64,000 bases of DNA, taken from assembly GCA_002365175.1 (NCBI GenBank), contig DEZK01000012.1, positions 3,330 through 67,329 on the forward strand, written 5' to 3'. Under the pieces are notes generated by a model. It was given only the letters and a program-made list of their open reading frames with translations. It was not told the DNA's origin and made no database searches. The stretch comes from Candidatus Raskinella chloraquaticus (GTDB lineage: Bacteria; Pseudomonadota; Alphaproteobacteria; Rhizobiales; UBA4765). The first letter of the stretch is position 1. Every line of letters begins with the position of its first letter. Positions 4,003-44,568 of the stretch are shown piece after piece. Both the position numbers and the translations under genes were made by a program.

Positions 4003-4006
4003 GGGT

Positions 4007-6091
4007 TCACCCTTCTGTGATGGTGATGTCGATGCAGCCGTCAGCGAGCGCGGTCGCGAAACGGCTTGCCGGTATGATGATGGTCGTTTCATCCTCGGTG
4101 ATGACCGCCGGCCCGGCGATGCGATGACCGGCAGCAAAAGCCGCACGGGAAAACACGCCTGCAGGGCCTGACCGGCCAAGCGCAGCATCAAACAGCGTGC
4201 GCTCATCGCTGCGCGCTGGCGCCCCGCCTGCCCGCACCGCCTCGACCCTGGTGATGCCAGGTGAGGGCGTGGCGGCGTTGACCGACCACACCGTGATCTC
4301 GACATCCATGCCGGCAACGGTACGCCCGAACAGATTCGCATAATCAGCCGTGAAGCGGGCAAGGAACGTCGCAGCATCTGCCGCCTTGACGTCATCTGGC
4401 GTCAGCGTGACCGGTATCTCCCAGCCCTGGCCGGCATAGCGCATATAGACCTTGAATTCAGCCGCGATCCGGGCGGTTGGCGCGCATAGGCGCACGAAGC
4501 GGGTAGCCTCGCTCTCCATCTCGGCAAAGAGCCGGCGGACCATGCCGGCATCGAACGCCGAGAGTTTCATGTAGGCGGTGCGGTTTGCTTCAAAGCTGAA
4601 CGGCGCCCGCAAAAAGCCGATCGCCGATCCAACGCCAGCCCCTGGCGGGACGAGGCAGCGCGAGACGCCGATTTTCTCGCACAGCCGCGCCGCATGGAGC
4701 GGGGCCGCCCCGCCAAAAGCGATCATGGTGTACTGGCTCAGATCCTCGCCATTTTCCACCGCGTGGACGCGGGCGGCATTCGCCATGTTTTCATCCACCA
4801 CTTCAGCAAGGCCGAAGGCAGCCTCCATTGTCGTGAGGGCAAGAGGCTCCCCCAGCACGCTGTCAAGGGCGCGCGCTGCCTGCTCGGGGTGAAGCGTCAT
4901 CGTCCCGCCGGCGAAATGCGCCGCCTCGAGCTTGCCGAGGAGGAGATCGGCATCAGTCACCGCAGGCCGCGTGCCGCCGCGCCCGTAACAGGCTGGCCCG
5001 GGCTCGGAGCCGGCACTTTCCGGCCCGACGCGGATCTGCTTCAGCCCGTCGATATGGGCAAGCGATCCGCCGCCGGCGCCAATCTCCACCATGTCGATCA
5101 CCGGGATCGAGATCGGCATGCCCGACCCCTTCTTGAAGCGGTAGGTGCGTGCCACCTCGAAGACCCGTGCCGTCTTCGGCGTCTGGTTCTTGATGAGGCA
5201 GATTTTCGCCGTCGTGCCGCCCATGTCGAAGGAGAGCACCTTGTCGAGGCCATGGCGCGCGGCGATATCAGCAGCAAACACAGCGCCGCCCGCCGGCCCG
5301 GATTCAACGAGGCGCACCGGGAATGCGGCCGCCGTCGCGATATCGATGATGCCACCACCCGAATGCATGAGAAACACCGGACAATCCGCGCCCTCCGCCC
5401 GCAAACGACCGGCGAGCCGCTCAAGATAGGACGCCATCAACGGTTTGATATAGGCGTTGGCAATCGTCGTGTTGAAGCGCTCATATTCGCGCATCTGGGG
5501 CGATACCTGCGATGACAGCGACACCATGACGCCGGGCAGGCGGGCGGCGAGAACTTCATGGATGAGCCGCTCATGGCTGTCATTCACATAGGCGTGCAGC
5601 AGGCCAACGGCGATGCTCTGGTAGCGCGCCGCGCGCAAGGTGTCGGCAAGGGCCTCGACTTCGGCGCGCGCAAGGGAAATCAGCACCTGGCCGCGCGCAT
5701 CCATGCGCTCGTTCACCACATAGCGACGGTTGCGCGCCAGCAGCGGCTCGGGAAGGGTGAGGTTGAGGTCATATTGCTCGAAGCGGCTTTCGGTCCGCAT
5801 CTCGATCACATCGCGGAACCCTTTGGTGGTGATGAGGGCCGTCCGCGCGCCGCGCCGCTCGATCAGCGCATTGGTCGCCAGCGTCGTGCCGTGGATGATC
5901 TGGCCAATCGATGAGGGCGTGAGGCCGGCCTTGGCGCAGACCATATGCATGCCGGCGATCATCGCCTCCTCGGGGGCTGCATAGGTGGTGAGCACCTTCG
6001 CCGAATAGCGCGCCGTGCCGATCTCCAGGACGACATCGGTAAACGTACCGCCGATATCAACGCCGAGCCGCGCCGTTTTATCCGTCATCAC
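4007..6091 (-). CDS. Hydantoinase A/oxoprolinase family protein
   Basis: The 694-aa product begins MMTDKTARLGVDIGGTFTDVVL (an ASKHA-type GGTFTD motif). It is tightly coupled to the HyuB-like gene downstream. Confidence 0.9.
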   Translation of the reverse strand: MMTDKTARLGVDIGGTFTDVVLEIGTARYSAKVLTTYAAPEEAMIAGMHMVCAKAGLTPSSIGQIIHGTTLATNALIERRGARTALITTKGFRDVIEMRTESRFEQYDLNLTLPEPLLARNRRYVVNERMDARGQVLISLARAEVEALADTLRAARYQSIAVGLLHAYVNDSHERLIHEVLAARLPGVMVSLSSQVSPQMREYERFNTTIANAYIKPLMASYLERLAGRLRAEGADCPVFLMHSGGGIIDIATAAAFPVRLVESGPAGGAVFAADIAARHGLDKVLSFDMGGTTAKICLIKNQTPKTARVFEVARTYRFKKGSGMPISIPVIDMVEIGAGGGSLAHIDGLKQIRVGPESAGSEPGPACYGRGGTRPAVTDADLLLGKLEAAHFAGGTMTLHPEQAARALDSVLGEPLALTTMEAAFGLAEVVDENMANAARVHAVENGEDLSQYTMIAFGGAAPLHAARLCEKIGVSRCLVPPGAGVGSAIGFLRAPFSFEANRTAYMKLSAFDAGMVRRLFAEMESEATRFVRLCAPTARIAAEFKVYMRYAGQGWEIPVTLTPDDVKAADAATFLARFTADYANLFGRTVAGMDVEITVWSVNAATPSPGITRVEAVRAGGAPARSDERTLFDAALGRSGPAGVFSRAAFAAGHRIAGPAVITEDETTIIIPASRFATALADGCIDITITEG

Positions 6092-12093: not shown

Positions 12094-12981
12094 ATGACGC
12101 CGACTTTCAAACAGCTAAAATATTTCGCCGCGCTCGCTCACCACCGTCATTTCGGGCGGGCGGCGGATGAATGCGCGATCAGCCAGCCAGCGCTCTCCCT
12201 GCAGATACAGGAACTGGAAAAGGCCCTGGGCGCATCACTCGTCGAACGAGGCCGTCACATGGTGACGCTGACACCTCTTGGCCAGGACGTCGAGGCGCGG
12301 GCAAGAACCATTCTGGCAAATGTGCGCGATCTGGTTGATCTGGCACAGCATCATAACGGCCTCCTGACCGGAGCGTTGCGTCTTGGCGTCATTCCCTCTT
12401 TGGCGCCCTACATCCTGCCACGGGCTTTGCCGCTGCTGCGCCGCGACTACCCTGCCCTCGTGCTGCATCTGCGCGAGGCACAGACACGCTATCTGACGGA
12501 CGAGCTTCTCGCGGGGCAGCTGGACGCTGTGCTGTTGTCGCGCCCCCTTGCCGATGACAGGGTGGAGATCAAGGATCTTTTCGATGACCGCCTTTTGCTG
12601 GTGACCGCACCTGATGGCGGGGAGGACAAGCCGGCGCAGCTGAGCGACATCAAGGCGGACTCGCTTCTGCTGCTGGATGAGGGGCATTGCCTGCGTGATC
12701 AGGCCCTTGCCTATTGCGGAGCGGATGACGTTTCGCGCCCACGCCCGGGGGTGGCGAGCCTTGCCACCATCATTCATATGGTTGCCAATGGCTATGGCTC
12801 GACGCTGCTGCCGGAGATCGCCCTTGATACCGAATTGCGCGGCAAGCCGCCGGTGAGGGTACGTTCCTTTGTCAATCCGCAGCCAAGCCGTCAGGTGGCG
12901 CTTGCGTGGCGCGCGACCTCGCCGCGCCGCGGCGATTTTTTATCCCTTGCCGACAGCCTGGTCAAAGCCATGAAGCGGTGA
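12094..12981 (+). CDS. oxyR: LysR-family peroxide-sensing regulator OxyR
   Basis: N-terminal LysR HTH (FKQLKYFAALAHHRHFGRAADECAISQPALSLQIQELE). The redox cysteine context is LLLLDEGHCLRDQALAYC. The gene is divergent from the catalase. Confidence 0.88.
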   Translation: MTPTFKQLKYFAALAHHRHFGRAADECAISQPALSLQIQELEKALGASLVERGRHMVTLTPLGQDVEARARTILANVRDLVDLAQHHNGLLTGALRLGVIPSLAPYILPRALPLLRRDYPALVLHLREAQTRYLTDELLAGQLDAVLLSRPLADDRVEIKDLFDDRLLLVTAPDGGEDKPAQLSDIKADSLLLLDEGHCLRDQALAYCGADDVSRPRPGVASLATIIHMVANGYGSTLLPEIALDTELRGKPPVRVRSFVNPQPSRQVALAWRATSPRRGDFLSLADSLVKAMKR

Positions 12982-13000
12982 ACGGCGCCAACGATGCATG

Positions 13001-13618
13001 CTACGCTGCGGCAGCCTCACGGATCGTCACCTTGATCGGCGTCGGATTGAAGCCATTGCACGGATTATTCACTTGCGGGCAATTTGAAATCACAAACAGC
13101 ACATCTGTGTCCATGGTGATGTCGACGTGATTGCCGGGCGCCGAGATGCCGTCGACAACGGTGAAATTGCCGGAAGGATCGATCGGCACGTTCATGAAGA
13201 AATTGAGATTGGCGGGAATGTCACGCTTGCCCAGCCCGTATTTTGACAGCTCAAGGACGAAGTTCTCCCGGCAGGCATGCTGATATTTGGTTGCCTCGCC
13301 AAAGCGCACCGCATTGCTCTCACACGAGCAGCAGCCGGCAGACGTGTCATGGCGCCCGCAGCTGTCTGCCGTAATCCGCGCCATCACGCGGCCGCGATTC
13401 GATATGAGCCTGGTGCCAAGTTCGATATAGGCAGCCCCCTGAACGCGCATGGTGTCCTGGGCGCTGTAGCGTTCCTCCATATCGCTTGCATCGTAAAGAA
13501 GCGCATCAACCGCCTGCTGGCCTTCGCTGTCGATGATGCGCAGCGTCTGCCCGCGCTTGATGATGCAGGACCACGGGCGCTCGGCGGGAATATCGAAAGA
13601 ATAGATCAGCTCTGACAT
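13001..13618 (-). CDS. DUF1989 protein, urea-carboxylase-associated protein 2 / CgdB-like
   Basis: MSELIYSFDIPAERPWSCIIKRGQTLRIIDSEGQQAVDALLYD...NLNFFMNVPIDPSGNF...VLFVISNCPQ. The ATG at 13618 lies 10 nt after the previous stop. Confidence 0.8.
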   Translation of the reverse strand: MSELIYSFDIPAERPWSCIIKRGQTLRIIDSEGQQAVDALLYDASDMEERYSAQDTMRVQGAAYIELGTRLISNRGRVMARITADSCGRHDTSAGCCSCESNAVRFGEATKYQHACRENFVLELSKYGLGKRDIPANLNFFMNVPIDPSGNFTVVDGISAPGNHVDITMDTDVLFVISNCPQVNNPCNGFNPTPIKVTIREAAAA

Positions 13619-13628
13619 GGGGCAATCC

Positions 13629-14450
13629 TCAGGCAAACAGGCGGTCGGTGAAGGTGAAGGCACGCATCGCTTCCGCCGACCCGGTCCGGCAGGGGTCATC
13701 GCTACTGGCAGCGGGCGCCCGGTAATGGACAAGCTCGATGGCGTTTGCGCCGGCAGGGCGGGCGGGATCAAGCGGATGCGGACAATTTGATACGACCAGA
13801 ACCAGGTTCATTTCAGCGCGCAAATCGACAAAATCCCCTGCCTTCTTGCGCGCCTTGTTCCATTTGAACCGCCCTGCCTTGTCGAGCGAAACGGGCGCGA
13901 AAAAGGTGATGCAGCCGGGGATGTCGCCAAGCCCCAGGCCGAGCTTCGCAGCAGCGGCCAGAAAATTCTCATGGCTGTTGCGCGCATAGTCAACGCCGTA
14001 GGCGGCCTGTGTTGACGCCGGCGTGGAGGCGCCCATCAGCAGATCATGGGCGCCGCTGGTATCTTCGATCAGAGACAGAAAGACGCGGCCCATATCGGTG
14101 AGCAGGACGCGCCCCTTTGCCATCGTTGCCGTCCACTGGATCTTGGCTGTATCGGCGCAATTGAGCCGCTCGCTCATATCCTCCTGGCGCCAGCCGATCA
14201 GGGCAGCGCTGGCGGCGCCCGACGGGTCCTTGATGCGCAGCGCTTCCCCCCGCTTCAACGTCAGCGTCGTATACCAGCCAGCCGGCACCGTTTCGCTGCG
14301 CACGATCATGTCTTTGGTGATACCGGCACTGTCGCGCGGTGTGGCCTTCGGTAAACTTTTGGGCGTTGCCTCCTGTCCGGCGGCACGAAGTTCTTCATAG
14401 CGGCGCCGATTGGCCTCGGCGATGGTCTGTTTCTGCTGCGATGGTTTCAT
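13629..14450 (-). CDS. DUF1989 protein, urea-carboxylase-associated protein 1 / CgdA-like
   Basis: The 273-aa product contains VPAGWYTTLTLKRGEALRIKDPSGAASAALIGW...ITFFAPVSLDKAGRF...NLVLVVSNCPHPLDP. Confidence 0.8.
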   Translation of the reverse strand: MKPSQQKQTIAEANRRRYEELRAAGQEATPKSLPKATPRDSAGITKDMIVRSETVPAGWYTTLTLKRGEALRIKDPSGAASAALIGWRQEDMSERLNCADTAKIQWTATMAKGRVLLTDMGRVFLSLIEDTSGAHDLLMGASTPASTQAAYGVDYARNSHENFLAAAAKLGLGLGDIPGCITFFAPVSLDKAGRFKWNKARKKAGDFVDLRAEMNLVLVVSNCPHPLDPARPAGANAIELVHYRAPAASSDDPCRTGSAEAMRAFTFTDRLFA

Positions 14451-14470
14451 GGTGCGTTACTCTCGGCGAT

Positions 14471-15067
14471 TCAGCTGATGGTGAAATGGGCTTCGACGGG
14501 GCGCCCGGCCGTGCCGTTGATTGGCAGAATATCCTGCGGGCAGGCTGAAAAGGCGATGACCAGATCCATTTCGGCGCGCAGGCGGACATAGCCGCCGGGC
14601 AGAGGCGCCGGTGGAGCGGCAAAGCGCAACGTGCCGTCATTCTGCCAGGGGATATTCATGAACAGATTGAGCGGGCTTGGCACTTCCGGCGGGGTGAGGC
14701 CGAGTTCAGCCATGCCGGCGAACAGATTGTCCTCGCAATTGTCATGATGGCCCTCGACCCCGAGGAAGGCATAGCGATGCCTGTCGCAGGCCGCGATAAG
14801 CGTGTCGTGGACACCGCCCGACGTGTCTTCAATCAATGTCAGCATCGGGCGCCGGCGATTACTGCGCAGGATATCGCCGGGGCGTGGGCTGAGATGCAGC
14901 GAGTGTGCTCTCGTATGCTCGTTCGACATGAATTCGCCAAGATCAGCCCGGCTGAACGCCCAGGTGTCGACAACCTGCTCGCCATGCGTGTTGATGACCG
15001 TGATGATCTGACCAAAATCGACAAGGGCCGCCTTGCCGCGCCGCGCCGGGATTTCGATCTGGTCCAT
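14471..15067 (-). CDS. Third DUF1989-family paralog
   Basis: MDQIEIPARRGKAALVDFGQIITVINTHGEQVVDTWAF...LNLFMNIPWQNDGTL...DLVIAFSACPQD shows the same fold signature as the two genes downstream. Confidence 0.75.
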   Translation of the reverse strand: MDQIEIPARRGKAALVDFGQIITVINTHGEQVVDTWAFSRADLGEFMSNEHTRAHSLHLSPRPGDILRSNRRRPMLTLIEDTSGGVHDTLIAACDRHRYAFLGVEGHHDNCEDNLFAGMAELGLTPPEVPSPLNLFMNIPWQNDGTLRFAAPPAPLPGGYVRLRAEMDLVIAFSACPQDILPINGTAGRPVEAHFTIS

Positions 15068-15072
15068 GGCTG

Positions 15073-15465
15073 TCAGCTCCGCACCGCGATCATATCGATT
15101 TCAACGATGCCCCCGCGCGCCAGTCCGGTGACGCCGATAGTGGTGCGCGCCGGGCGCCGATCAGCCTTGAAGTAGCTTGCATAGATCGTGTTCATGGCCG
15201 GGTAGTCGCGGTCGAAAGCGGTGAGAAAAATACGCGCCTGCACGACGTCGTCGAAGCCAAGCCCGCAGCCCTTGAGCACGCGTGCCAGATTATCCATCAC
15301 CTTGACCGTCTGCGCTTCGATCCCGGCGGGCACGGGCAGGCTGTCATTATCCGGGTCGGTGGCAAGCTGCCCGGTGATGAACACGAAGCCGCTTGCCTCC
15401 ACCGCATGGCTGTAGGGGGCGACCGGCTTCGGGGCGTCAGGCAGAAGGTGGAAGATCGGATGCAT
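15073..15465 (-). CDS. ridA: RidA/YjgF-family reactive-intermediate (enamine/imine) deaminase
   Basis: MHPIFHLLPDAPKPVAPYSHAVEASGFVFITGQLA...PARTTIGVTGLARGGIVEIDMIA. The track's longer N-terminus (start 15660) overlaps the upstream ABC ATPase gene (15494-16270) and is rejected. Confidence 0.85.
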   Translation of the reverse strand: MHPIFHLLPDAPKPVAPYSHAVEASGFVFITGQLATDPDNDSLPVPAGIEAQTVKVMDNLARVLKGCGLGFDDVVQARIFLTAFDRDYPAMNTIYASYFKADRRPARTTIGVTGLARGGIVEIDMIAVRS

Positions 15466-15493
15466 GGTAAACCTCAAGGCGGTTGGCGGAACG

Positions 15494-16270
15494 TCAGGCG
15501 GCTGCAACGCCGGCGTAACGCTGGATGAACAGGCGGGCGCGCTCGGTCTGCGGCCTGGTGAAGAAATCCGCAGGCGTCCCGCTTTCAATGAGCCTGCCCT
15601 GATCAAGAAAGAGAATACGGCTGGCGACATCGCGGGCAAACGCCATTTCGTGGGTGACAATCACCATCGTCATTCCTTCGCTGGCAAGCGCACGCATCAC
15701 CAGCAACACCTCGCCGACAAGCTCGGGGTCAAGGGCGCTCGTCGGCTCATCGAACAGCAGGACATCCGGTTTCATGGCGAGCGCGCGGGCGATGCCGACG
15801 CGCTGCTTCTGCCCGCCCGAGAGCCGCGCGGGGAAGACATCGCGCTTGTCCGACAGGCCGACCTTGGCAAGGAGTGCCAGGGCCTCGGCCTCTACTTCCG
15901 CTTTCGCCCGCTTCTGCACCTGGACCGGCGCCTCCATGACATTTTGCAACACGGTGAGATGCGGCCACAGGGCGAAATGCTGGAACACCATGCCCATGCG
16001 GGTGCGCAGCTTGGACAATTCACTGTCCTTCATCACCAGCCCGTGGCCGGTGACGCCGATCTCGCTGCCATTGAGATAGATGCGCCCCGCATTGGGTCGC
16101 TCCAGCCAGTTGATGCAGCGCAGAAGCGTCGACTTGCCGGAGCCTGATGGCCCCAGCAGGCAGATCGTCTCGCCGCGCTCGACCGAAAACGAGATATCGC
16201 TCAAAACCTGCAGCTTGCCGAAACTCTTCGACAGGCCGGCAATATAGAGGATTTTCTGCGGATCATTCAT
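15494..16270 (-). CDS. Polar amino-acid ABC transporter ATP-binding protein
   Basis: Walker [10 protein letters not shown], signature [15 protein letters not shown] and Walker [12 protein letters not shown] are all present. Confidence 0.93.
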
Positions 16271-16279
16271 GACATTGTC

Positions 16280-16936
16280 CTAACGTCTGGCCTCCGCCAC
16301 CCGCCCCACGACACTGACGCCGGCTTCAACCAGAAGGCATAGCCCCCAATAGAGCAGAACAGCGCTGATGAAGGCGGCAAACGGCACGTAATGGCGTGAC
16401 TGGATCGAGCTTGCGGCATGGGTCAGCTCGGGCAGGGCGATGATGGTGAGAAAAGCGCTGTCCTTGATGATCTGGATCATCTGATTGCCGATGATCGGGC
16501 TGACATTGAGGAGGAGCGGCGGCAGGATGATGCGGCGGAAAAGCAGAAAATCGGAAAAGCCGAAGGCGCTCCCCGCTTCGATCGGCTCACGCGGTTGCGC
16601 CACCCAGGCGCCGCGCAGGATTTCAGCCATGTAGGCGGCATTGTAGATCGTCAGCGCCAGCAGGCCCGAACTCCAATTGTCAAAGCGCAACCCGAGCGAG
16701 GGCAGGCCATAATAGACGATATAGGCAAAGAGCAGGAAGGGGACGCAGCGCATGCCGTCGACAAAAAACCGCATGGCAGCTGCAATCGCCTTGCGCTTGG
16801 ACATCAGCCCGGGCACCAGAATGATCCCCAATGCCAACGCCATGATAGCCGACAGGACCGACAGGATGGTCGTATTGGCAAGCCCGCTCAACAGCAGGCC
16901 TCGCTCGCTCCACACCACGAGGAAATCGTGAATCAT
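16280..16936 (-). CDS. Amino-acid ABC transporter permease (His/Glu/Gln/Arg/opine family)
   Basis: The 218-aa multi-pass membrane protein has the EAA-type loop (IEAGSAFGFSDFLLFRRIILP). Its start overlaps the upstream stop in ATGA. Confidence 0.88.
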   Translation of the reverse strand: MIHDFLVVWSERGLLLSGLANTTILSVLSAIMALALGIILVPGLMSKRKAIAAAMRFFVDGMRCVPFLLFAYIVYYGLPSLGLRFDNWSSGLLALTIYNAAYMAEILRGAWVAQPREPIEAGSAFGFSDFLLFRRIILPPLLLNVSPIIGNQMIQIIKDSAFLTIIALPELTHAASSIQSRHYVPFAAFISAVLLYWGLCLLVEAGVSVVGRVAEARR

Positions 16937-17580
16937 GTGCTCGCCTCCGCCGCAGCACGCCGCTTTTCAATGAAGCGCTGGAGCGCAACCAGCGCGTAGA
17001 CGATGGGCGCATAGATGGCCACGGCTACCAGAAAGGGCGGCAGGGGTTCATACGTCTGCGCGCCGATGCGGACCGCTGCCCGCGTGATGTCGACGACACC
17101 GACAACAGCCAGCACCGGCGTCACCTTGATGAGGAGCGACATTTCGTTGACGAGGCCCGGCAGGCTGTCGTGAATGATTTGCGGCAGGATGATGCGCCGG
17201 AAGCGCTGGCCGGCCTGCATGCCGAAGGATTGCGCTGCCTCGTACTGGTCTTTCGGAAAATTGACGAGTGAGGAGCGCCATACTTCACAGTTGAATGCTG
17301 ATGTGTTCATCGTCAGTGCCAGGATCGCCGCCGAGATCGGCCCGAGCGGGATGCCGATATTGGGCAGGGCGAAGAAGAGCAGCAGCAACAGGGTCACCAG
17401 CGGTGTCGCCCGCAGCACGCTGACATAGACGGCAACGATGCCAGACAGGACCGGCACCCTGGCCCAGCGGATGAGGGCCAGTCCCAGACCGATCGGCAGA
17501 CCGATCAGGATGCCGATGGCAGACAGCGTCACTGTCGCCAGGGCACCCTGAAGGATCGCCAGGACGTCATTGAGGCTCAT
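16933..17580 (-). CDS. Amino-acid ABC transporter permease
   Basis: The 215-aa product contains YEAAQSFGMQAGQRFRRIILPQ, a permease EAA loop. Confidence 0.88.
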   Translation of the reverse strand: MSLNDVLAILQGALATVTLSAIGILIGLPIGLGLALIRWARVPVLSGIVAVYVSVLRATPLVTLLLLLFFALPNIGIPLGPISAAILALTMNTSAFNCEVWRSSLVNFPKDQYEAAQSFGMQAGQRFRRIILPQIIHDSLPGLVNEMSLLIKVTPVLAVVGVVDITRAAVRIGAQTYEPLPPFLVAVAIYAPIVYALVALQRFIEKRRAAAEAST

Positions 17581-17621
17581 GGCCGTTCCTGCGGTTGCGA
17601 AAGGTCACGAGCCACGGAGTT

Positions 17622-18488
17622 TCAGAACTCCGGATCGAAGGATACCGGCAGATCGGTGAAGGCTTCGCCAAACCACGTCTTCTGCAGCTCGTAGAATTTG
17701 CCGCTGGCCTTCTGCTTGGCGATGAACTCGTTGAGGAAGGCCTGCAGCGACGTATTGTCCTTGGCGATCGCCCAGGCCGGATATGACTTGCCGGAAACTG
17801 CCTGACCGATCTCGAAGACGTCCGGCTTTTCGCCGACCAGCGCCTTCAGATTGATGATAGTGTTGACGACGTAATCGGTGCGCCCGAGCGCGAGGTCCTG
17901 ATAGGCTTCCGGGTAGGAGGTATATTCCACCACCTTGCCGAGCTTGCCGCCCTGCTTTTCCAGCATCGCTGCCAGTTCAGGAAGGCGTCCGAGAAGCGCC
18001 GAGCCCGATTGCACGCCAACCGTCTTGCCGCTCAGATCCTTGATCGACGTGATCGAGGTGTCCTTCTTGCGCTTCACGTAAAAATGCGTCGCATCCGCGA
18101 TCGGGCTGGTGAAGCTCAGCGATTTGGTACGCTCCTTGGTGATGATCGCCGCCGTGATCGCCACATCATATTTGCCGGTGCTGACGCCAGCCAGAATTCC
18201 CGTCCAGGGCAGAATTTCCTGGCGGATTTCGAAAGGCGCGAATTTGCGCAGCTCCGCCACCAGATCATTGTCAAAGCCGGTTGGCTTGCCATCCTTGACG
18301 AATTCGAAGGGGCGGAAATCGTCTTCGGTGGCGACGATCAGGTAGCCGCGCTTCTTGATTTCCTCAAGCGTCGCGGCCTTGGCGCTGGTAACCATGCCGG
18401 CAAGGCCCATGAGCGGCAGCGCAACGGCTGCCGCCACAAGGCCGGTTGTGACGCGGCGGGTAAGGTGACGGGTCAGATAGTCAATCAT
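17622..18488 (-). CDS. Periplasmic substrate-binding protein, family 3 (polar amino-acid type)
   Basis: A signal peptide is followed by TLEEIKKRGYLIVATEDDFRPFEFVKDGKPTGFDNDLV. Confidence 0.88.
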   Translation of the reverse strand: MIDYLTRHLTRRVTTGLVAAAVALPLMGLAGMVTSAKAATLEEIKKRGYLIVATEDDFRPFEFVKDGKPTGFDNDLVAELRKFAPFEIRQEILPWTGILAGVSTGKYDVAITAAIITKERTKSLSFTSPIADATHFYVKRKKDTSITSIKDLSGKTVGVQSGSALLGRLPELAAMLEKQGGKLGKVVEYTSYPEAYQDLALGRTDYVVNTIINLKALVGEKPDVFEIGQAVSGKSYPAWAIAKDNTSLQAFLNEFIAKQKASGKFYELQKTWFGEAFTDLPVSFDPEF

Positions 18489-18518
18489 CGCATATCCTTT
18501 CAGTCAGGGTGGGAAACG

Positions 18519-19352
18519 TCAGGAAAAATCAAATCCGTGGGCAAGCAGGTATTTTGGAAAGGCCGCGCCCTCGCCCTCGCAGGCATGGCGCGTCTTGTCT
18601 TCCGACCAGCCGTAGAACGCGGCCTCGCCGAAACGGGCCTTGGCACGTTGCTGGTCGGGAGCGATGGCGCGGATCGCGGCGCGGCGTCGGTCGTAATCGT
18701 CGATCGCCCCGGGGAGCGCTTCATCGTCATAGCGGTCGCGATGGATTGTGATCTGACGTGGCAGACGCAAGCTGATATGCGCTTCGCCCGAAGGGTAGCC
18801 AAGGCACAGGCCGGCAACCGGAAAGACAAGATCAGGAAGTGAGAGGATAGCGGCGACGGTATCGATCTTGTTGCGCAATACCGAGATGGGGCAGGTGCCA
18901 AGGCCACAGGCTTCGGCAGCCAGGATCATCGTCTGCAAGGCAAGGGCGGCGTCGACACTGGCGTTGAAAAAACCTTCAAGACTGCCATTGCGCACCGGCT
19001 TGCCGCGCATCGCTCCCAGACGCTGGAGGCGCCGCGCATCAGCGAGAAAAACATAGAAGACCGGCGCAGCGCCAATCCATGGCATGGCCGGAAACAGGGC
19101 GGCCAGGGCGGTGCGCTGGGCGACATCCCTCAAGCGCAGCAGCGAGACCTGCTGATAGTCCGACTTCGACGAGGCGCTGAGGGCAGCGGCGGCCAGCACG
19201 TCGAGCAGCGCTTCGTCGGGCAACCGGGCCTCAAAGCGCCTGATGGTCCGCCGCGACAGTATTGCCACGACAGCATCCGGCACCGATGAGCCTGTCAATG
19301 CCGGGCCATTATCGCCAAAGCGCTGGTCAATCAGATGGTCGAATGTGCTCAC
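18519..19352 (-). CDS. Nitroreductase-family flavoprotein
   Basis: GTG start. ILSRRTIRRFEARLPDEALLDVLAAAALSASSKSDYQQ...AEACGLGTCPIS is typical of the nitroreductase fold. This is the first gene of the nine-gene operon. Confidence 0.8.
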   Translation of the reverse strand: MSTFDHLIDQRFGDNGPALTGSSVPDAVVAILSRRTIRRFEARLPDEALLDVLAAAALSASSKSDYQQVSLLRLRDVAQRTALAALFPAMPWIGAAPVFYVFLADARRLQRLGAMRGKPVRNGSLEGFFNASVDAALALQTMILAAEACGLGTCPISVLRNKIDTVAAILSLPDLVFPVAGLCLGYPSGEAHISLRLPRQITIHRDRYDDEALPGAIDDYDRRRAAIRAIAPDQQRAKARFGEAAFYGWSEDKTRHACEGEGAAFPKYLLAHGFDFS

Positions 19353-19570
19353 CTGGCCTCGCTACTCAACGACCCCGGAGACCGGTTAAGCCTCTTGATC
19401 AGGGCGTGCCTTTCCACGACTGGTGAAGCAAGGCGTGTGCCAAGCAGCGCTCGCCGTGCGTTGCGGCAATCGGCAGGTTATTTTCATGAAAAACAGCATT
19501 ATGCCTTGTCGGTAAGCAGGATGGTGTGCCCGTTCTGCCCGCTGTCGCGACGTCCCGCGATCCTGGAGCC

Positions 19571-19614
19571 TTAAATTGTATGCAATTTAATTTTATGTGC
19601 CTATTATATAGGCA
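19571..19614. promoter_or_regulatory. Two adjacent perfect palindromes in an AT-rich patch upstream of the nitroreductase operon, candidate operators or promoter
   Basis: TTAAATTG-tatg-CAATTTAA spans 19571-19590 and TGCCTAT-tat-ATAGGCA spans 19598-19614. On the minus strand the second palindrome contains TATAAT. Confidence 0.4.
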
Positions 19615-19720
19615 ACATTCGATCTGCAGTGGGCGAAGCCCTGGTTCGGGAGAAACGGCTCGCCATATCCCGCGCTCGATTTGGCTTTGGTGAACGATGG
19701 CGCTGCCCATTCGCTCTTCC

Positions 19721-22700
19721 TCAATGAAAATCGCGGCTTTTTGGCAGAAGCCGGGCATCGCGCGGATGGCGGTTGCGTGGCGGCGGGGCCAGATGAAGAG
19801 GAGGCGGGAGGAGGACGCCTGTGCTCGTCCCCGCTCCGGCAGGCGAATGGAGGGTCGCGCCCTCATCGCCCGGCGACAGCAGGGAGGCGGTAAGGGTCTG
19901 GCCGCTGCCATGGTCCTCCCACAGGCGTTCAAGCATGGCCGAGCGATCGATGATGTTGCTTGCCATCAGATGCACCACGCCTTCAGGGCTTTTCTGCACC
20001 CGCCCCTCCACCAGCATCAATCGCGCCGCCATCACCGGGCGGCGCAGGCTTTCAAACTGACGCGCCCATAACACGCAATTGGTGACACCGGTCTCATCCT
20101 CGATGGTGATGAAGATGGCATTGCCCTTGCCGGGACGCTGGCGCACCAGAACAAGGCCGGCCGTCCGCGTGAAGCGCCCATCGCTGCGTGCCGAAGTCTC
20201 AGCGCAGGAGCACACATCGCGCGCTGGAAAAAACCGGCGCAGCAACGCCATCGGATGAGCTTTGAGCGAGAGCCTCATCGTCTGGTAATCATTGGCGACC
20301 TGCTCGCCAAGCCCCATCACCGGCAGCCGGGCATCAGGTTCGACCCCCAGTTCGCGCGCTTCCTGGACCGCAAAAAGCGGAAGCGGATCGTCTTCAGGCA
20401 GCCGCCGCACCTCCCAGAGCGCGGCGCGTCGGTCAAGGCTGAGTGAGCCAAACGCATCCGCCTCCGCCAGCGCCCGCATGGGTCGCCCATGAAGTTTTGC
20501 CCGCCGTGCCACCTCCTCGATCGTTGCATAGCCCTCACGCCGTCCAGCCGTCAGCCGTGTGGCTTGCGCTTCATGAATGGCGGCCGCCTGGCGAAATCCA
20601 AGACGCAACGCCAGCCTCGCGCGCCCCGTTTCTGCCGGCTGGCCGGGCGCGGCCGGTTCAAGCGTATTGTCCCAGAAGCTGTGGTTGACATCGACAGGGC
20701 GCACCTCCACCCCATGGTCTCTTGCATCGCGCACGATCTGGGCTGGCGCATAAAACCCCATGGGTTGCGCATTCAGGAGAGCGGCGGCGAAGATGTCCGG
20801 GTAGTGGCATTTGAGCCACGATGAAATATAGACCAGCTTGGCAAACGAGGCGGCATGGCTTTCCGGGAAGCCGTAGGAGCCGAAACCCTTGATCTGGTTG
20901 TAGCAGTTTTGCGCAAAATCCCGTGTGTAGCCACGCGCGACCATGCGCTCCACCATCATTGCCTCGAAGCGATGAATGGTGCCGGTATGGCGGAAGGTTG
21001 CCATGGCGCGGCGCAGCTGGTTGGCTTCGACGTCGGAAAATGTCGCAGCCACCATCGCAAGCTGCATCGCCTGCTCCTGGAAAAGCGGCACGCCCATCGT
21101 CTTGCCAAGCACGGCACGCAGCTCATCCGCCGGCCCGTGCTGGGGCGCAGGCGCAGGATAGCTCACCTTTTCCGCGCCCGAGCGTCGCCGCAGATAGGGG
21201 TGCACCATATTGCCCTGGATGGGGCCGGGGCGGACGATCGCCACCTGGATCACGAGATCGTAGAATACGCGCGGCTTGAGACGCGGCAGCATGTTGATCT
21301 GCGCCCGGCTTTCCACCTGAAAGACGCCAATCGAATCGCCACGCCGCAGCATGGCGTACGTATCAGGATCGTCCGCCGGCACATCGGCAAGAGCCATATC
21401 GATCCCGTGGTGATCGCGCATGAGATCGAAAGCCTTGCGGATGCAGGTCAGCATACCAAGTGCCAGGATATCGACCTTCATCAGGCCCAGCGCATCGATA
21501 TCGTCCTTGTCCCATTCGATGAAGGTGCGCTCCGCCATCGCCGCATTGCCAATCGGCACCAGCTCATCAAGACGCCCGCGCGTCAGCACAAACCCGCCGA
21601 CATGCTGCGACAGATGGCGGGGAAAGCCGATCAGGCGCTTGGCAAAGGCAACCGCCCGCGCGATTGCCGGACTGTCGGGATCAAGACCTGCCTGCCTCAC
21701 CTGCGCCCGGGTGATGTCAGACCCCCAGCTTCCCCATTGCGTGCCGGCGAGGGCGGTGGTGATGTCTTCCGACAGGCCGAGGACCTTGCCAACCTCGCGG
21801 ATGGCGCTTTTGGGCCGGTAATGGATGACGGTGGCGGCAAGCCCTGCCCGCTCGCGGCCATAGCGCGCATAGATATGCTGGATGATCTCCTCGCGCCGCT
21901 CATGCTCGAAATCGACATCGATATCCGGCGGTTCCCGCCGCTCCTCCGAGATGAAGCGCGCAAACAGCACATTATGCTCGGCCGGATCGACGCAGGTGAT
22001 ACCAAGCACATAGCAGACGGCGGAATTGGCGGCTGAGCCCCGCCCCTGGCAGAGAATACCCTTGTCGACAGCCACCCGCACGATGTCATAGACGGTGAGG
22101 AAATAACGCGCGTAATCAAGCTTGGCGATGAGCGCCAGTTCGCGGTGCAGCAGGGCCTCCACCTTGTGTGGAACGCCGTCTGGATAGCGCATCGCCGCAT
22201 GGCGCAATGTCAGCTCTTCCAGCCAGCTCTGCGCCTGCCAGCCCGGCGGCACCGGTTCCTCGGGATAATCATAGGTGAGCTCGCCAAGATCGAAATCAAG
22301 ACGGGCAAGAAGCGCCTGTGTTTCGCTGATCGCCTCCGGGCAATCGCCAAACAGGCGTGCCATCTCGGCTGGATGCTTGAGGTGGCGCTCGGCATTGATC
22401 TCAAGGGCACGTCCGGCGCTTTCAATCGTCATGCCCTGGCGGATACAGGCGAGAATATCCTGCAGATCGCGTGCATCAGGCGTGGCATAGAGAACATCAT
22501 TGCTGGCAATGAGCGGCACGCAAGCTGCCTGTGCCCTCTCCCTGAGCTTTACCAGCCGGCGCCGGTCATCGCCGCGCCGGGGCATGGTGGCACCAAGCCA
22601 GAGCGCGCCGGGGAAGGCATCGCCCAGCTGCGCCAGCAAGGCGGGGAGAGGCGCCAGATTGCGCTCTGGCATGACGATCACCAGCAGATCGCCGGCATGC

Positions 22701-23197
22701 GACAGAAGATCGCCGAGGCTCAGATGAAAATCGCCTTTTGCAGCCCGCCTGTTCCCCGTTGTCAGCAGGCGGCACAGACGCGCCCAGCCCGTGCGGTTTT
22801 GCGCATAGGCGACGATGTCGGGCGTGCCATCGCCAAAGGCTAGACGGACGCCGGTTGCCAGTTTGAAGCGTTGCGCCCGCTGCCGCACCTGGGCGCGTAA
22901 CGCCTCCATCGCCGGCGTGTCGTCATCAAGCGCAGAGGAGATGTAATGATATTCGCCCGGCCCCGCTCCCTGGCGCTGCTTCACCGCAGGCAGGATCCCG
23001 CCCGCGCGCAATTCCCTGAGCGCTGACCACGCCCTGACCACCCCGGCCAGCGTGTTGCGATCAGCAATGCCAAGACCGGTATGTCCGAGCAGCAGCGATG
23101 TCAGCACCAGATCGGCGGCAGGAGAGGCGCCGCGCAGGAATGAGAAATTTGTTGCCGCGACCGGTTCGGCATAAGGCGGCACCGGGTGATCCTTCAT
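19721..23197 (-). CDS. dnaE2: Error-prone DNA polymerase DnaE2 (ImuC)
   Basis: MKDHPVPPYAEPVAATNFSFLRGAS... with PHP and pol III alpha core motifs throughout. The C-terminus ...HPRDARLLPKSRDFH is a DnaE2 hallmark. The start overlaps the imuB stop in ATGA. Confidence 0.95.
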   Translation of the reverse strand: MKDHPVPPYAEPVAATNFSFLRGASPAADLVLTSLLLGHTGLGIADRNTLAGVVRAWSALRELRAGGILPAVKQRQGAGPGEYHYISSALDDDTPAMEALRAQVRQRAQRFKLATGVRLAFGDGTPDIVAYAQNRTGWARLCRLLTTGNRRAAKGDFHLSLGDLLSHAGDLLVIVMPERNLAPLPALLAQLGDAFPGALWLGATMPRRGDDRRRLVKLRERAQAACVPLIASNDVLYATPDARDLQDILACIRQGMTIESAGRALEINAERHLKHPAEMARLFGDCPEAISETQALLARLDFDLGELTYDYPEEPVPPGWQAQSWLEELTLRHAAMRYPDGVPHKVEALLHRELALIAKLDYARYFLTVYDIVRVAVDKGILCQGRGSAANSAVCYVLGITCVDPAEHNVLFARFISEERREPPDIDVDFEHERREEIIQHIYARYGRERAGLAATVIHYRPKSAIREVGKVLGLSEDITTALAGTQWGSWGSDITRAQVRQAGLDPDSPAIARAVAFAKRLIGFPRHLSQHVGGFVLTRGRLDELVPIGNAAMAERTFIEWDKDDIDALGLMKVDILALGMLTCIRKAFDLMRDHHGIDMALADVPADDPDTYAMLRRGDSIGVFQVESRAQINMLPRLKPRVFYDLVIQVAIVRPGPIQGNMVHPYLRRRSGAEKVSYPAPAPQHGPADELRAVLGKTMGVPLFQEQAMQLAMVAATFSDVEANQLRRAMATFRHTGTIHRFEAMMVERMVARGYTRDFAQNCYNQIKGFGSYGFPESHAASFAKLVYISSWLKCHYPDIFAAALLNAQPMGFYAPAQIVRDARDHGVEVRPVDVNHSFWDNTLEPAAPGQPAETGRARLALRLGFRQAAAIHEAQATRLTAGRREGYATIEEVARRAKLHGRPMRALAEADAFGSLSLDRRAALWEVRRLPEDDPLPLFAVQEARELGVEPDARLPVMGLGEQVANDYQTMRLSLKAHPMALLRRFFPARDVCSCAETSARSDGRFTRTAGLVLVRQRPGKGNAIFITIEDETGVTNCVLWARQFESLRRPVMAARLMLVEGRVQKSPEGVVHLMASNIIDRSAMLERLWEDHGSGQTLTASLLSPGDEGATLHSPAGAGTSTGVLLPPPLHLAPPPRNRHPRDARLLPKSRDFH

Positions 23198-24837
23198 GCA
23201 AAAAGCCCGTGCAGAAACCAGCGCGGATGAGTGGTGCTGTCCTCGTAAAGCCCTTCGCGAAAAATCCAGAAACGTTGACCCGTGGCATCTTCCACCCGGT
23301 AATAATCGCGGACGGCCGGCGGGTGATCGCCGCCAGCGATGTGGCTGTGCCACCATTCAGGGGCGATCCGCTCGGGTCCCTCCGCAAGGGCCACCTCGTG
23401 GAGCTGACGGCGCCAGCGAAATCTGCGGGGAGGGCTGTCTGGCACCTCGGCCAGCGCCTCGATGAGCTGCGGGCGCTCAAAGAGCGTCAGCGGGCGAAGC
23501 GGCGGATGGCCGGGCTCAAGGGGCGGCCAGGAGGCGGAAGAGGCCGGTGAGAGATAGGGCACGACCCCTCCGGCCTCCCCCGGATCATGGGTCGCGCGCG
23601 CTACAAACCGCTGGACATGGTCACGCCCGAACCGCGCCACCAGCCGGTCGACGAGATCGGCAAGACCGCGCTTCTCCTCATCCGCCACCTGCCCGCCGGA
23701 GAGATGATGCTGACGCTCGTCAAGCGTCTCGCCCCATGTCACGGCAAGGCGCAGGGCGTCAAACCCGAAGCCGGGATCGAGAGGATCGGCGAGTGTGGTG
23801 ATCTTCAGTGCGATGAGGCGCATCAGCCGGGCGCCATCGCGCATGGCTTGCGCTGTTTCAATTGTCAGCCGCCGCACGGCCCCATCGGCACGAAAGAAGA
23901 TGACCTCAAACCCCCGCCCGCCCGCGCCGCGCCGCTCCAGCAGGCTCATCACATCGCCCGCCAGCCTTGCCAGCTCTGCCAGCAATCCCTCCATGGCGGT
24001 GATGGGCGTGGCAAAATGCTTGTCTGCCATGATCTCCGGCGGTGGCCGAAGCGGCGTGATGCGGATATCGTCGCGCCCCAGAATCCGCTGCAGGATGTCC
24101 ACCAGCCCTGCGCCGAAGCGTGCCGCCAGCAAGGAAGACGGGCGGTCGGCAAGATCGCCCAGCGTTCTGAGCCCCGCCCGCGTCAGGGCCAGCGTGATAT
24201 GTCTTTCCTGCTCAAGGGCTGCCACCGGCAACGCCCGCGCCGCCCTCTCCTCTGTGGCGGGTGGCAGGCGTTCGGTGGATGAGAAACGAGCGAACGCCCA
24301 TGCCGCATCAGGAGTATTGGCAAGGGCAGCACGCGTCGCCAGCCCGAGGCGATTGAGGTTGCGCCGGGCCTGGATCAGAAGCGCTTCCTCGCCGTCGAAA
24401 AGATGGGCGCAGCCGGTAATGTCGAGGATGAGGCCCTCTCTTCCCCTGAGAGTCACCAGCGGCGTAAATTTCTCGCAGACCGCCGCAGCTGCCAGCAGAT
24501 AATCTGCATCAGCGGCATGGTCCATGGCCGCTGTCATCAGGTTCGGGACCAGGGCGCGCGCCTCGGCAAGGGCCATGTCGAGGGCAAGTTTGCAGCGCCT
24601 GGCAAGCGGGTCGAGGGCAGCAATCCGCAGCGCGCCCCGCTCTTTCTGCGTGAGAACAAAGGGCGGCTCATCAGCTGTGCCGCTGCGCGGCCGGTTCAAT
24701 GCCCGGCATGCCCGGTCGGTTGACAGGAAGGGCAGCCACAGCCCGAGATAGCGGCGCGGTTCCGTCAATGCCGGTGCGATCGTCAATGAGGGAATCGGCG
24801 ATGGTAACAACGGAATGGATGACGAGGTCTCGGACAT
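23194..24837 (-). CDS. imuB: ImuB, Y-family-polymerase-like SOS mutagenesis protein
   Basis: It contains RRYLGLWLPFLSTDR near the N-terminus. Position is between imuA and dnaE2. The start is uncertain (ATG 24837, ATG 24879 or an internal TTG), and every option overlaps the imuA 3' end. Confidence 0.85.
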   Translation of the reverse strand: MSETSSSIPLLPSPIPSLTIAPALTEPRRYLGLWLPFLSTDRACRALNRPRSGTADEPPFVLTQKERGALRIAALDPLARRCKLALDMALAEARALVPNLMTAAMDHAADADYLLAAAAVCEKFTPLVTLRGREGLILDITGCAHLFDGEEALLIQARRNLNRLGLATRAALANTPDAAWAFARFSSTERLPPATEERAARALPVAALEQERHITLALTRAGLRTLGDLADRPSSLLAARFGAGLVDILQRILGRDDIRITPLRPPPEIMADKHFATPITAMEGLLAELARLAGDVMSLLERRGAGGRGFEVIFFRADGAVRRLTIETAQAMRDGARLMRLIALKITTLADPLDPGFGFDALRLAVTWGETLDERQHHLSGGQVADEEKRGLADLVDRLVARFGRDHVQRFVARATHDPGEAGGVVPYLSPASSASWPPLEPGHPPLRPLTLFERPQLIEALAEVPDSPPRRFRWRRQLHEVALAEGPERIAPEWWHSHIAGGDHPPAVRDYYRVEDATGQRFWIFREGLYEDSTTHPRWFLHGLFA

Positions 24838-25447
24838 CACGGTCCCACTCCACAAGATAGCGCAGACCTTCCCGGCCATGGCGGGTGCGCAACAGGGTCA
24901 GATCAAAAAGCGGGTGGCCAGGGGCACGTGCTGCCAAGGCCCGCGATGGTGCCGGGTGGATCAGCCAACGCGTCTCGGCCGCGCTGGCATGGGGCGTGGC
25001 GGCCATCCGCGTGATGAAAACGCCGATGCCTGAAGCCTTCGCCGCCAGCACCAGACGCCGGCTTGCGGTCAGATCATAGGCTTTTGCCTCGCCCCATAAT
25101 TCGATCATCACCGCCCCGAGGCCGTGGCAGCGTGCGCCTTCAAGCCCTGCCTGGAGCGCGCCGGTGACATCAGGCGTCCGCACCAGGATCACCTGCGCCG
25201 GATCAACACCGAATTCCGCAAGGCCCGCCGCATAGGGCGCGCCATGTTCCCGATCAAGGGCGGCGTGGCGAACCCACAGCTTCGGGCCGCGTTTGGCCAG
25301 GTGCATCAGGGCCAGGACCCCGCCTGTCATGGCCATGCTCCGGATGCCGGTGCCGGCATAGAACTCATGCACCGCCTCGCCCGCCAGCGTGAATTGGGGC
25401 CGTGCATCCGGGTCGGCATGGGGTAACGGTCTTGGCATGAGGGTCAT
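24671..25447 (-). CDS. imuA: ImuA, RecA/SulA-like SOS mutagenesis protein
   Basis: It is the first gene of the cassette. HEFYAGTG...LWVRHAALDREHGAPYAAGLAEFGVDP...LRYLVEWD matches ImuA organisation. A LexA box lies 17 nt upstream. Confidence 0.85.
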   Translation of the reverse strand: MTLMPRPLPHADPDARPQFTLAGEAVHEFYAGTGIRSMAMTGGVLALMHLAKRGPKLWVRHAALDREHGAPYAAGLAEFGVDPAQVILVRTPDVTGALQAGLEGARCHGLGAVMIELWGEAKAYDLTASRRLVLAAKASGIGVFITRMAATPHASAAETRWLIHPAPSRALAARAPGHPLFDLTLLRTRHGREGLRYLVEWDRDVRDLVIHSVVTIADSLIDDRTGIDGTAPLSRAVAALPVNRPGMPGIEPAAQRHS

Positions 25448-32250: not shown

Positions 32251-32263
32251 TCGACGCGCGGCG

Positions 32264-35625: not shown

Positions 35626-35688
35626 CGCCACATTCCGGGTTAGCCAGCCGCCAGCCAATAAGGCGACGTCGACAGAAGGGCGCGCCGT

Positions 35689-44477: not shown

Positions 44478-44568
44478 CTTCCTCTCCCCGCTGCCGTCTT
44501 TCTCGGCTAGAGCTAGCAGAAGGCCGCCATTTGTCGAAGCGAGCACGGCCATATCAGGGGAGGCTCCC

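Follow-up and report, generated by a model that had tools for sequence, protein, structure and literature searches.

Organization and conservation of the nine-gene operon

The window analyzed here is a 64,000-nucleotide stretch of contig DEZK01000012.1 from the alphaproteobacterium Candidatus Raskinella chloraquaticus. Between positions 13001 and 19352, nine open reading frames (ORFs; g1–g9) lie head to tail on the minus strand and encode a nitroreductase, an ATP-binding cassette (ABC) importer, a RidA protein, and three DUF1989 proteins (Table 1). The spacings between consecutive genes, from g1 to g9, are 30, 41, −4, 9, 28, 5, 20, and 10 nt, in agreement with the range of −4 to 41 nt and the coordinates given in a first-pass annotation of the window, which had described nine co-directional genes forming an operon. 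The same genes were called independently on identical contigs from three metagenomes. Their domains were assigned with Pfam and NCBIfam, using curated cut-offs.

Table 1. Genes and predicted control features of the operon, with window coordinates
Feature	Position	Strand	Description
g1	18519..19352	-	NfsA/NfrA/Frp-like flavin mononucleotide (FMN) nitro/flavin reductase, 277 aa, GTG start; Nitroreductase PF00881 5e-17
g2	17622..18488	-	Periplasmic binding protein, SBP_bac_3, 288 aa; PF00497 4e-31; non-canonical ligand site
g3	16933..17580	-	ABC permease, 215 aa; BPD_transp_1 (PF00528); HEQRo 3TM TIGR01726 above cut-off
g4	16280..16936	-	ABC permease, 218 aa, 4-nt overlap with g3; BPD_transp_1 (PF00528); HEQRo 3TM TIGR01726 above cut-off
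g5	15494..16270	-	ABC ATPase, 258 aa; PF00005 7e-38
g6	15073..15465	-	RidA-subfamily imine/enamine deaminase, 130 aa; PF01042 6e-32; TIGR00004 109.8 versus cut-off 106.25
g7 (DUFa)	14471..15067	-	Stand-alone 3ORU-type DUF1989 protein, 198 aa, 3-Cys zinc site; PF09347 9e-49
g8 (DUFb)	13629..14450	-	UAAP1/CgdA-type DUF1989 protein, 273 aa; DUF1989 2e-49; TIGR03425 254.6 versus cut-off 205.95
g9 (DUFc)	13001..13618	-	UAAP2/CgdB-type DUF1989 protein, 205 aa; DUF1989 6e-66; TIGR03424 304.1 versus cut-off 284.7
Sigma-54 (-24/-12) promoter TGGCACACGCCTTGCT	19427..19442	-	TGGCAC-N5-TTGCT, 75-90 nt upstream of the g1 start
AT-rich perfect 17-bp palindrome TGCCTATATAATAGGCA	19597..19613	.	About 165 bp upstream of the sigma-54 promoter; read in the sequence

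Sequence comparison places g1 in the NfsA/NfrA/Frp structural group, and g1 is no NfsA orthologue. It scores 119.6 bits against NF008033 (NfsA oxygen-insensitive NADPH nitroreductase), under the cut-off of 223, and its best solved homologues are NfrA2, NfrA1, YcnD, NfsA, and Frp. The start of g6 is the ATG at 15465, which has a GAGG ribosome-binding site ahead of it. The g6 translation contains the motif RPARTT, whose PAR arginine is the one with which 2-imino-acid deaminases bind the carboxylate of the 2-imino acid, and both the family score and this arginine agree with RidA membership. The Rut pyrimidine pathway draws on the same three families (RutB isochorismatase, RutC of the RidA family, and RutE of the nitroreductase family) and passes through an aminoacrylate/imine after C–N cleavage. 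Membership of the operon in the Rut pathway was rejected, as RutA/RutF monooxygenase is lacking and the scores fall far under the Rut equivalog cut-offs; the likeness is an analogy only.

In a scan of one genome per species, relatives of g7 were found in 449 genomes, and the best 80 of these 449 were compared in gene order (loci here and below are numbered with the prefix L). Mining their genomic context for the nine-gene arrangement, as the first-pass annotation had advised, recovered the identical order in 43 of the 80 species genomes. Most of these belong to Bradyrhizobium, and Methylobacterium crusticola and several alphaproteobacterial metagenome-assembled genomes (MAGs) are also represented. 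Since the order is identical in so many species-representative genomes, the arrangement is not a chance one, and the operon assignment is borne out. About 15 further genomes among the 80 hold partial versions. A betaproteobacterial locus, from Casimicrobiaceae, has the importer and three DUF1989 genes without the nitroreductase and RidA; the RidA gene is missing at 3 orthologous loci; six loci end after g7, without g8 and g9; and one locus consists of a MarR-family gene, the nitroreductase gene, and g7 only. The loci that lack g8 and g9 indicate that the nitroreductase, importer, RidA, and g7 form the core of the operon, to which the g8/g9 pair is an optional addition.

A CgdAB-type pair and a stand-alone zinc protein

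All three distal genes encode DUF1989 proteins, as first proposed, with the E-values listed in Table 1. The initial description had treated them alike, as three tandem paralogs, whereas the family models and phylogeny assign g8 and g9 to the type of the carboxyguanidine deiminase CgdAB and g7 to a different, stand-alone subfamily. In terms of family scores, g8 and g9 form the adjacent UAAP1–UAAP2 pair that characterizes CgdAB, and g7 lies under both the UAAP1 and the UAAP2 cut-offs (107 and 65 bits).

A neighbour-joining tree was built from 209 DUF1989 sequences taken from all fetched loci. It resolves three clades, comprising the g7 type, the UAAP1/CgdA type that holds g8, and the UAAP2/CgdB type that holds g9. 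The operon-type g8 and g9 sequences form tight monophyletic groups, sister to the canonical Rhizobiaceae pairs, and are nested among carboxylase-adjacent pairs; the canonical pairs of Novosphingobium, Pantoea, Skermanella, and Paraburkholderia fall outside. The g9 protein sits on a short branch. The placement relative to CgdA and CgdB that the first-pass annotation had called for thus puts g8 and g9 inside the carboxylase-linked clade and g7 in a clade of its own.

The g9 protein is 68% identical to the UAAP2 protein of the canonical Rhizobium lentis operon, and its active-site columns (D-H-D-C-C-E-N-N-S-C-P-Q-V) equal those of canonical CgdB at every column examined, including the three zinc cysteines. 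In g8, the first cysteine is replaced by Ser and the second is absent, so that two of the three zinc cysteines are gone, as in canonical CgdA. The pair therefore combines one subunit carrying the full set of three cysteines with one lacking it, as in CgdAB. By sequence, g8 and g9 are a bona fide CgdA/CgdB-type pair, in which g9 is probably the catalytic subunit and g8 its non-catalytic partner.

The third protein, g7, is in the same subfamily as, and orthologous to, the protein of PDB entries 3ORU and 3SIY, a structural-genomics "DUF1989 family protein" from Ruegeria (Silicibacter) sp. TM1040. The alignment with these entries is full length (E = 3e-62) and covers the three zinc cysteines together with the flanking Asp and His. 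D34, H87, D88, C94, C111, C176, and D179 of g7 are invariant in 87 of 89 family members. Proteins of the g7 type are 70–88% identical among Bradyrhizobium, Acetobacteraceae, Azospirillaceae, and a Solirubrobacterales MAG. The operon thus holds a zinc enzyme that is highly conserved across orders and even phyla and whose structure is solved. Zinc chemistry at a 3-Cys site is known for the DUF1989 fold from the structures of trimethylamine N-oxide demethylase (PMC13619132). Like Tdm (PDB 9Q59, 9Q5L), g7 has the 3-Cys zinc DUF1989 core, and its D34 and D179 match Tdm D220 and D367, two aspartates lining the demethylase active site; unlike Tdm, it has neither the GCV_T/tetrahydrofolate domain nor the N-terminal pseudo-DUF1989 domain. 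Tdm membership (NF053776, cut-off 1100) was rejected on the missing GCV_T domain and on scores of 94 bits for g7 and of 43 and 84 bits for the other two DUF1989 proteins. Our literature search found no paper that describes this operon or gives the 3ORU-type subfamily a function.

Further DUF1989 genes occur at two of the loci. Jiella endophytica has four in tandem after an importer and an agmatinase-like gene (L083:9989-12600), all closest to the g7 type, with identities of 71, 40, 38, and 49%. At L020:12091-13316, two deep-branching extra DUF1989 genes lie beside an AllG-like gene (oxamate carbamoyltransferase subunit).

Sigma-54 promoter and Guanidine-I riboswitch

The sigma-54 promoter listed in Table 1 is the sole perfect match to TGGCAC-N5-TTGCW in the 64 kb, where 0.12 matches are expected. 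Of 59 orthologous loci, 53 carry the motif ahead of the nitroreductase gene, compared with a background frequency of 0.015 per 480 nt. Such a promoter points to probable control by nitrogen status. Measured from this promoter, the functional leader is probably about 65–75 nt long, shorter than the approximately 220 nt of leader previously assumed.

Farther upstream, the AT-rich palindrome lies at a distance typical of enhancer-binding-protein sites and may be a candidate for one. It is kept only in the MAG of L069, which is 98% identical, and overlaps a weak sigma-70-like match. Because of this narrow conservation and the better support for the sigma-54 site, the palindrome was set aside as a control element of the operon. 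The sigma-70-like promoter itself (19575-19603) was also discarded, being weak (9 of 12 positions) and of a kind found at 4 sites against 1.8 expected.

The leader is 200–300 nt longer in many Bradyrhizobium loci, and the extra stretch is a Guanidine-I riboswitch. Between the sigma-54 promoter and the nitroreductase gene, a profile search with nhmmer detected this riboswitch at 29 of 59 orthologous loci, beginning about 14 nt past the −12 element, and all nine loci tested pass the gathering score of RF00442 (67.8–82.6 bits versus 63). It is also present at L020 and L029, both of which lack g8 and g9. The Bradyrhizobium-type aptamer and its expression platform are homologous to those that precede the canonical Rhizobiaceae guanidine operon. 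Because the riboswitch precedes 29 of the 59 orthologous loci, the operon belongs to the guanidine regulon. This finding calls for revision of the initial proposal of a pathway distinct from the guanidine route. The window copy is a riboswitch-less variant, like the photosynthetic Bradyrhizobium loci and several others. An Rfam search of the window returned one tRNA only, and the region 12900-19900 was empty even at E ≤ 5; the earlier failure to recognize a guanidine riboswitch in this leader accordingly holds, with no RF00442 match at either the gathering score or E ≤ 5. Control in this genome would therefore rest on sigma-54 and an enhancer-binding protein.

Guanidine gained acceptance as a genuine metabolite of bacteria only once its riboswitches had been discovered. 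When metagenome contigs were scanned for riboswitches of this type, 120 instances were obtained; a canonical NMT1-type importer follows in 70, the nitroreductase operon in 31, and CgdA directly in 2, and the remaining 17 are too short to judge. Three gene sets thus lie behind this riboswitch in soil Alphaproteobacteria; the nine-gene operon is the third and is common there.

In 10 of the 70 NMT1 cases, the genes run on into an arginase-family protein and a His-rich protein. This set, found at L104, L118, L150, L166, L192, L211, L212, and L214, comprises the NMT1-type importer, an arginase/agmatinase-family protein of 402–413 aa bearing an N-terminal extension, and a His-rich protein of 160–200 aa. 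It may represent a GdmH-like nickel guanidinase unit with its metallochaperone in soil Alphaproteobacteria. In 33–34 Bradyrhizobium loci (L004–L055, at about 5100-5700), the promoter is immediately preceded by a gene for a MarR-family regulator, which is on the operon strand and divergent from the genes for the amidohydrolase and molybdenum hydroxylase; no MarR homologue is encoded in the window.

An importer with an unusual ligand site

At the family level, g2–g5 have the architecture of a polar amino-acid ABC importer. The best NCBIfam matches of the ATPase g5 are TcyN, HisP, GlnQ, and EhuA, each under its cut-off, and the structure closest to the binding protein g2 is the Thermotoga arginine-binding protein 6SVF. 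The ligand site of g2 keeps the carboxylate arginine, HisJ R77, whereas S72 and D161, which hold the α-ammonium group, are replaced by Ile and Thr, respectively, in 59 of 59 orthologues, so that the S72–R77–D161 clamp of polar amino-acid importers is incomplete. The alignment with 6SVF gives the same two substitutions in g2. The binding proteins adjoining g7-type genes in other taxa likewise lack D161. Since g2 has lost the residues for a free α-amino group, the expected ligand changes from an amino-acid-like compound, as the first-pass annotation had it, to a carboxylate without a free α-ammonium group. The other elements of that proposal, an imported compound and C–N chemistry, stand.

The same site weighs on a reading centered on canavanine, in which an arginine analogue would be imported and cleaved, the nitroreductase would reduce hydroxyguanidine to guanidine, RidA would quench the enamine of the amino-acid moiety, and CgdAB would assimilate the guanidine. 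Every gene of the operon is thereby given a role, and Bradyrhizobium, in which the operon is abundant, is a legume symbiont. Nitroreductases reduce N–O bonds, which fits the proposed step. Moreover, the hydroxyguanidine formed by canavanine γ-lyase is excreted and its fate is unknown (PMC9533460). The ligand site of g2, however, lacks the residues for a free α-ammonium group, and no pyridoxal-phosphate lyase is encoded in or near the operon. The operon is just as much a feature of non-symbiotic MAGs from peat and soil, of Methylobacterium, and of a betaproteobacterium, and a carboxylase would still be required. The binding-site residues and the missing lyase, above all, make the use of canavanine or hydroxyguanidine highly improbable.

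Separation of the CgdAB-type pair from the carboxylase

To our knowledge, two routes of guanidine degradation have been established, one through carboxylase, CgdAB, and allophanate hydrolase and the other through nickel guanidinase. The nine-gene unit is closest to the operon of the former route, which consists of a Guanidine-I riboswitch, an NMT1-type importer, CgdA, CgdB, guanidine (urea) carboxylase, and allophanate hydrolase, as on Rhizobium lentis plasmid p1 (L087), on Pantoea vagans pPag3 (L088), and in Paraburkholderia sprentiae (L092). Shared features are the adjacent UAAP1/UAAP2 pair, the importer upstream of it, and, in the Bradyrhizobium orthologues, the homologous riboswitch and platform. 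In contrast to the classical operon, the carboxylase and allophanate hydrolase are gone, the importer is of the SBP_bac_3 rather than the NMT1 type, the promoter is of the sigma-54 type, and the window copy has no riboswitch. Three genes, for the nitroreductase, RidA, and a third DUF1989 protein, are added.

Pfam scans of the large ORFs found neither a biotin carboxylase of the urea/guanidine type nor an allophanate hydrolase in the 64-kb window, and tblastn of the window with urea carboxylase, two allophanate hydrolases, and the AtzE amidase gave no match. Both searches agree with the first-pass annotation, which had noted that the two enzymes are not encoded there. The genomic linkage to carboxylase and allophanate hydrolase that accompanies CgdAB is thus absent from the window. 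All 6 canonical loci have an adjacent carboxylase, and the 54 operon-type loci have none within 10 kb. When the Allorhizobium urea carboxylase was used as a protein query, all matches came from Rhizobiaceae. The CgdAB-type pair is here uncoupled from its carboxylase.

This arrangement could be explained by a purely split version of the classical pathway. Free guanidine would be imported, carboxylase and allophanate hydrolase encoded elsewhere would be co-induced, and g8/g9 would simply be CgdAB; the nitroreductase, RidA, and g7 would be accessory, for example in dealing with side products, or g7 would be a second, homomeric carboxyguanidine deiminase. The riboswitch indeed senses free guanidine, and the catalytic columns of g9, indistinguishable from those of canonical CgdB, and its short branch suit this explanation as well. 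There is also precedent: enterobacteria keep two separate riboswitch-controlled units, one for the importer and CgdAB and one for the carboxylase and allophanate hydrolase (PMC12186494). For Bradyrhizobium arachidis, the annotation includes genes for both urea carboxylase and allophanate hydrolase (PMC9927569). Against these points stand the consistent absence of a nearby carboxylase and the importer, since canonical importers are of the NMT1 type found after most riboswitch instances. Moreover, the riboswitch-controlled core survives without g8 and g9 in L020 and L029 and so acts by itself, and genes for amide and guanidino hydrolases repeatedly accompany g7-type genes at sites remote from any carboxylase. 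Overall, we regard a purely split pathway as possible but rather unlikely.

Neighboring genes in relatives and the candidate substrates

The genes that accompany g7-type genes in other taxa provide clues to the substrate. On Klebsiella plasmids and in Azospirillum, the importer and the g7-type gene occur with an amidase of the M20 hydantoinase/carbamoylase family. Agmatinase-family enzymes adjoin the g7-type gene and importer in Mesorhizobium, Skermanella, and Jiella, together with a creatininase in Skermanella sp. TT6, and in Acetobacteraceae a fused HyuA-HyuB lies beside the g7-type gene. A cog3964 amidohydrolase (NF006689, 430 bits, above the cut-off of 371) is encoded near the g7-type gene in Bradyrhizobium, a Reyranellaceae MAG, and another MAG, and is adjacent to g7 in L056 and L061. 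It also flanks the operon, together with a divergent CoxLMS-type molybdenum hydroxylase, in 44–46 Bradyrhizobium loci, and this type of hydroxylase is found beside the betaproteobacterial locus as well. What these contexts have in common is the hydrolysis of guanidino, ureido, or cyclic-amide groups in molecules that bear a carboxylate.

In one lineage (L072, L076, and L094), the divergent neighbors encode a BiuH-like isochorismatase, AtzE, AtzG-like and AtzH-like proteins, and an allophanate hydrolase, the only one near operon-type loci; no carboxylase follows within 3.5 kb past the allophanate hydrolase. These are homologues of the lower pathway of cyanuric acid and biuret (AtzE, AtzG, AtzH, BiuH, AtzF), which converts N-carboxylated urea compounds to allophanate hydrolytically, without ATP. 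They lie outside the nine-gene unit and are found neither in the window nor in the Bradyrhizobium loci; the hydroxylase and amidohydrolase neighbors of the relatives are likewise absent from the window.

Many of the proteins called allophanate hydrolase in the collection (P0243–P0360) are only 230–430 aa long and retain AH_C with no more than a residue of the amidase domain, although their contigs reach 660 kb. At L093 (10001-10891), whose context is an unrelated, purine-type one, and at L094, a neighboring gene call covers the amidase part. The short forms may result from gene splitting or frameshifts, or the enzyme may truly exist in a two-gene form.

These neighbors raise the question of whether the operon serves to break down an acyl-guanidine or a nitrogen-rich heterocycle without a carboxylase; guanylurea, a triazine, and a ring derived from 2-aminopyrimidine or purine are examples of such substrates. 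After hydroxylation, the ring would be opened by hydrolysis to yield N-acyl- or N-carboxy-guanidines, which g7 and g8/g9 would deiminate to carboxy-urea compounds, and AtzEGH-like enzymes with allophanate hydrolase would complete the degradation; guanidine would arise only from spontaneous decarboxylation and act as the signal. The hydroxylase and amidohydrolase flanking the Bradyrhizobium loci, the recurrence of the former in a betaproteobacterium, and the adjacency of the latter to g7 in two loci are consistent with such a route, as is the BiuH-like, AtzE/G/H, and allophanate hydrolase set with no carboxylase upstream of the hydrolase. The cysteine-ligand zinc sites of cytidine and guanine deaminases deaminate cyclic acyl-guanidines and amidines, a further parallel in its favor. 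The likeness of these deaminases to the zinc site of the DUF1989 fold has been drawn before (PMC13619132). All of these neighbors are nevertheless absent from the window, and the association is mostly that of one genus, so that shared ancestry inflates it. The operon itself encodes no ring-opening enzyme, and the substrate is wholly hypothetical. We therefore consider catabolism of a heterocycle or acyl-guanidine unlikely.

Proposed function of the operon

The nine genes probably constitute a variant module for nitrogen scavenging from guanidine or guanidino compounds rather than an unrelated pathway. On balance, we favor the explanation that they form a single sigma-54-driven nitrogen-scavenging operon within the guanidine regulon, with a chemistry that we infer as follows. 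The ABC system would import a carboxylate-bearing compound of the guanidino or ureido type without a free α-ammonium group, guanidine itself being a less likely cargo. The nitroreductase, RidA, and g7 may then convert the imported compound by hydrolytic or redox C–N chemistry at the zinc site of g7, where RidA would hydrolyze an imine intermediate and the flavoenzyme g1 would supply or remove reducing equivalents. For this core, zinc-dependent C–N hydrolysis or rearrangement by g7 combined with imine hydrolysis by RidA would be the most economical chemistry. Free guanidine, produced in the process or co-occurring with the substrate, would be the signal sensed by the riboswitch in relatives. 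Since the nitroreductase–RidA–g7 core stays behind the riboswitch even where g8 and g9 are missing, it must serve a guanidine-related purpose by itself.

Where present, the optional g8/g9 pair most probably still deiminates carboxyguanidine or a very close N-carboxy- or acyl-guanidine, which would yield allophanate and ammonia as in the classical reaction. The carboxylated substrate could come from a carboxylase acting in trans, following the enterobacterial precedent, or from hydrolases that deliver it without ATP. Such a bypass is suggested by the BiuH-like, AtzEGH, and allophanate hydrolase genes beside the operon in one lineage.

Several points weigh against this explanation. The guanidine link of the window operon is made by orthology only, as its own riboswitch is absent. 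The absence of RidA at 3 loci, and of both the nitroreductase and RidA in Casimicrobiaceae, implies that neither protein is strictly required, and the roles assigned to the nitroreductase, RidA, and g7 derive from chemical reasoning. Furthermore, genes under a riboswitch usually act on the ligand that it senses, and this favors free guanidine as the substrate.

A more far-reaching proposal is that the NfsA-like flavoenzyme, RidA, and the 3ORU-type DUF1989 protein constitute a third route for guanidine or for acyl- or substituted guanidines, independent of both the ATP- and biotin-dependent carboxylase and nickel guanidinase. We put this forward tentatively, as something rather doubtful; if true, it would give the first function to a structurally solved and very widespread enzyme subfamily. 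More broadly, solving the operon would clarify how nitrogen bound in guanidino and ureido compounds is recovered by soil bacteria and legume symbionts, supply a substrate for the 3ORU-type DUF1989 subfamily, and test whether carboxyguanidine can be reached without ATP.

Surrounding genes in the window

The genes flanking the operon are unrelated to it. An OxyR–catalase pair lies downstream. OxyR (12094-12981) was rejected as a regulator of the operon because its gene is divergent from that of catalase, convergent with g9, and absent at other loci. An error-prone polymerase cassette consisting of imuA-like, imuB (IMS family), and dnaE2 genes (19721-25447, minus strand) immediately precedes the operon and has the same orientation.

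An ATP-dependent pair of the hydantoinase/oxoprolinase family, HyuB and HyuA, is encoded at 2299-6091 (minus strand), 7 kb from g9. These proteins are 46% and 33% identical to the fused HyuAB that adjoins g7-type genes and an OPT transporter in Acetobacteraceae (L073, L075, and L081). They were set aside as members of the pathway, being 7 kb away behind unrelated genes and absent from the orthologous loci.

A cyclic-nucleotide signaling cluster occupies 29182-35658 and comprises an ABC-type protein with a C-terminal domain binding cyclic nucleoside monophosphate (cNMP; 1022 aa), a CHASE2 adenylate/guanylate cyclase (743 aa), and a cNMP-gated ion-transport protein (388 aa). The operon also shares the window with a gene at 44413-49377 (plus strand) for an NAD-specific glutamate dehydrogenase of 1654 aa, in which all Bac_GDH domains are present.

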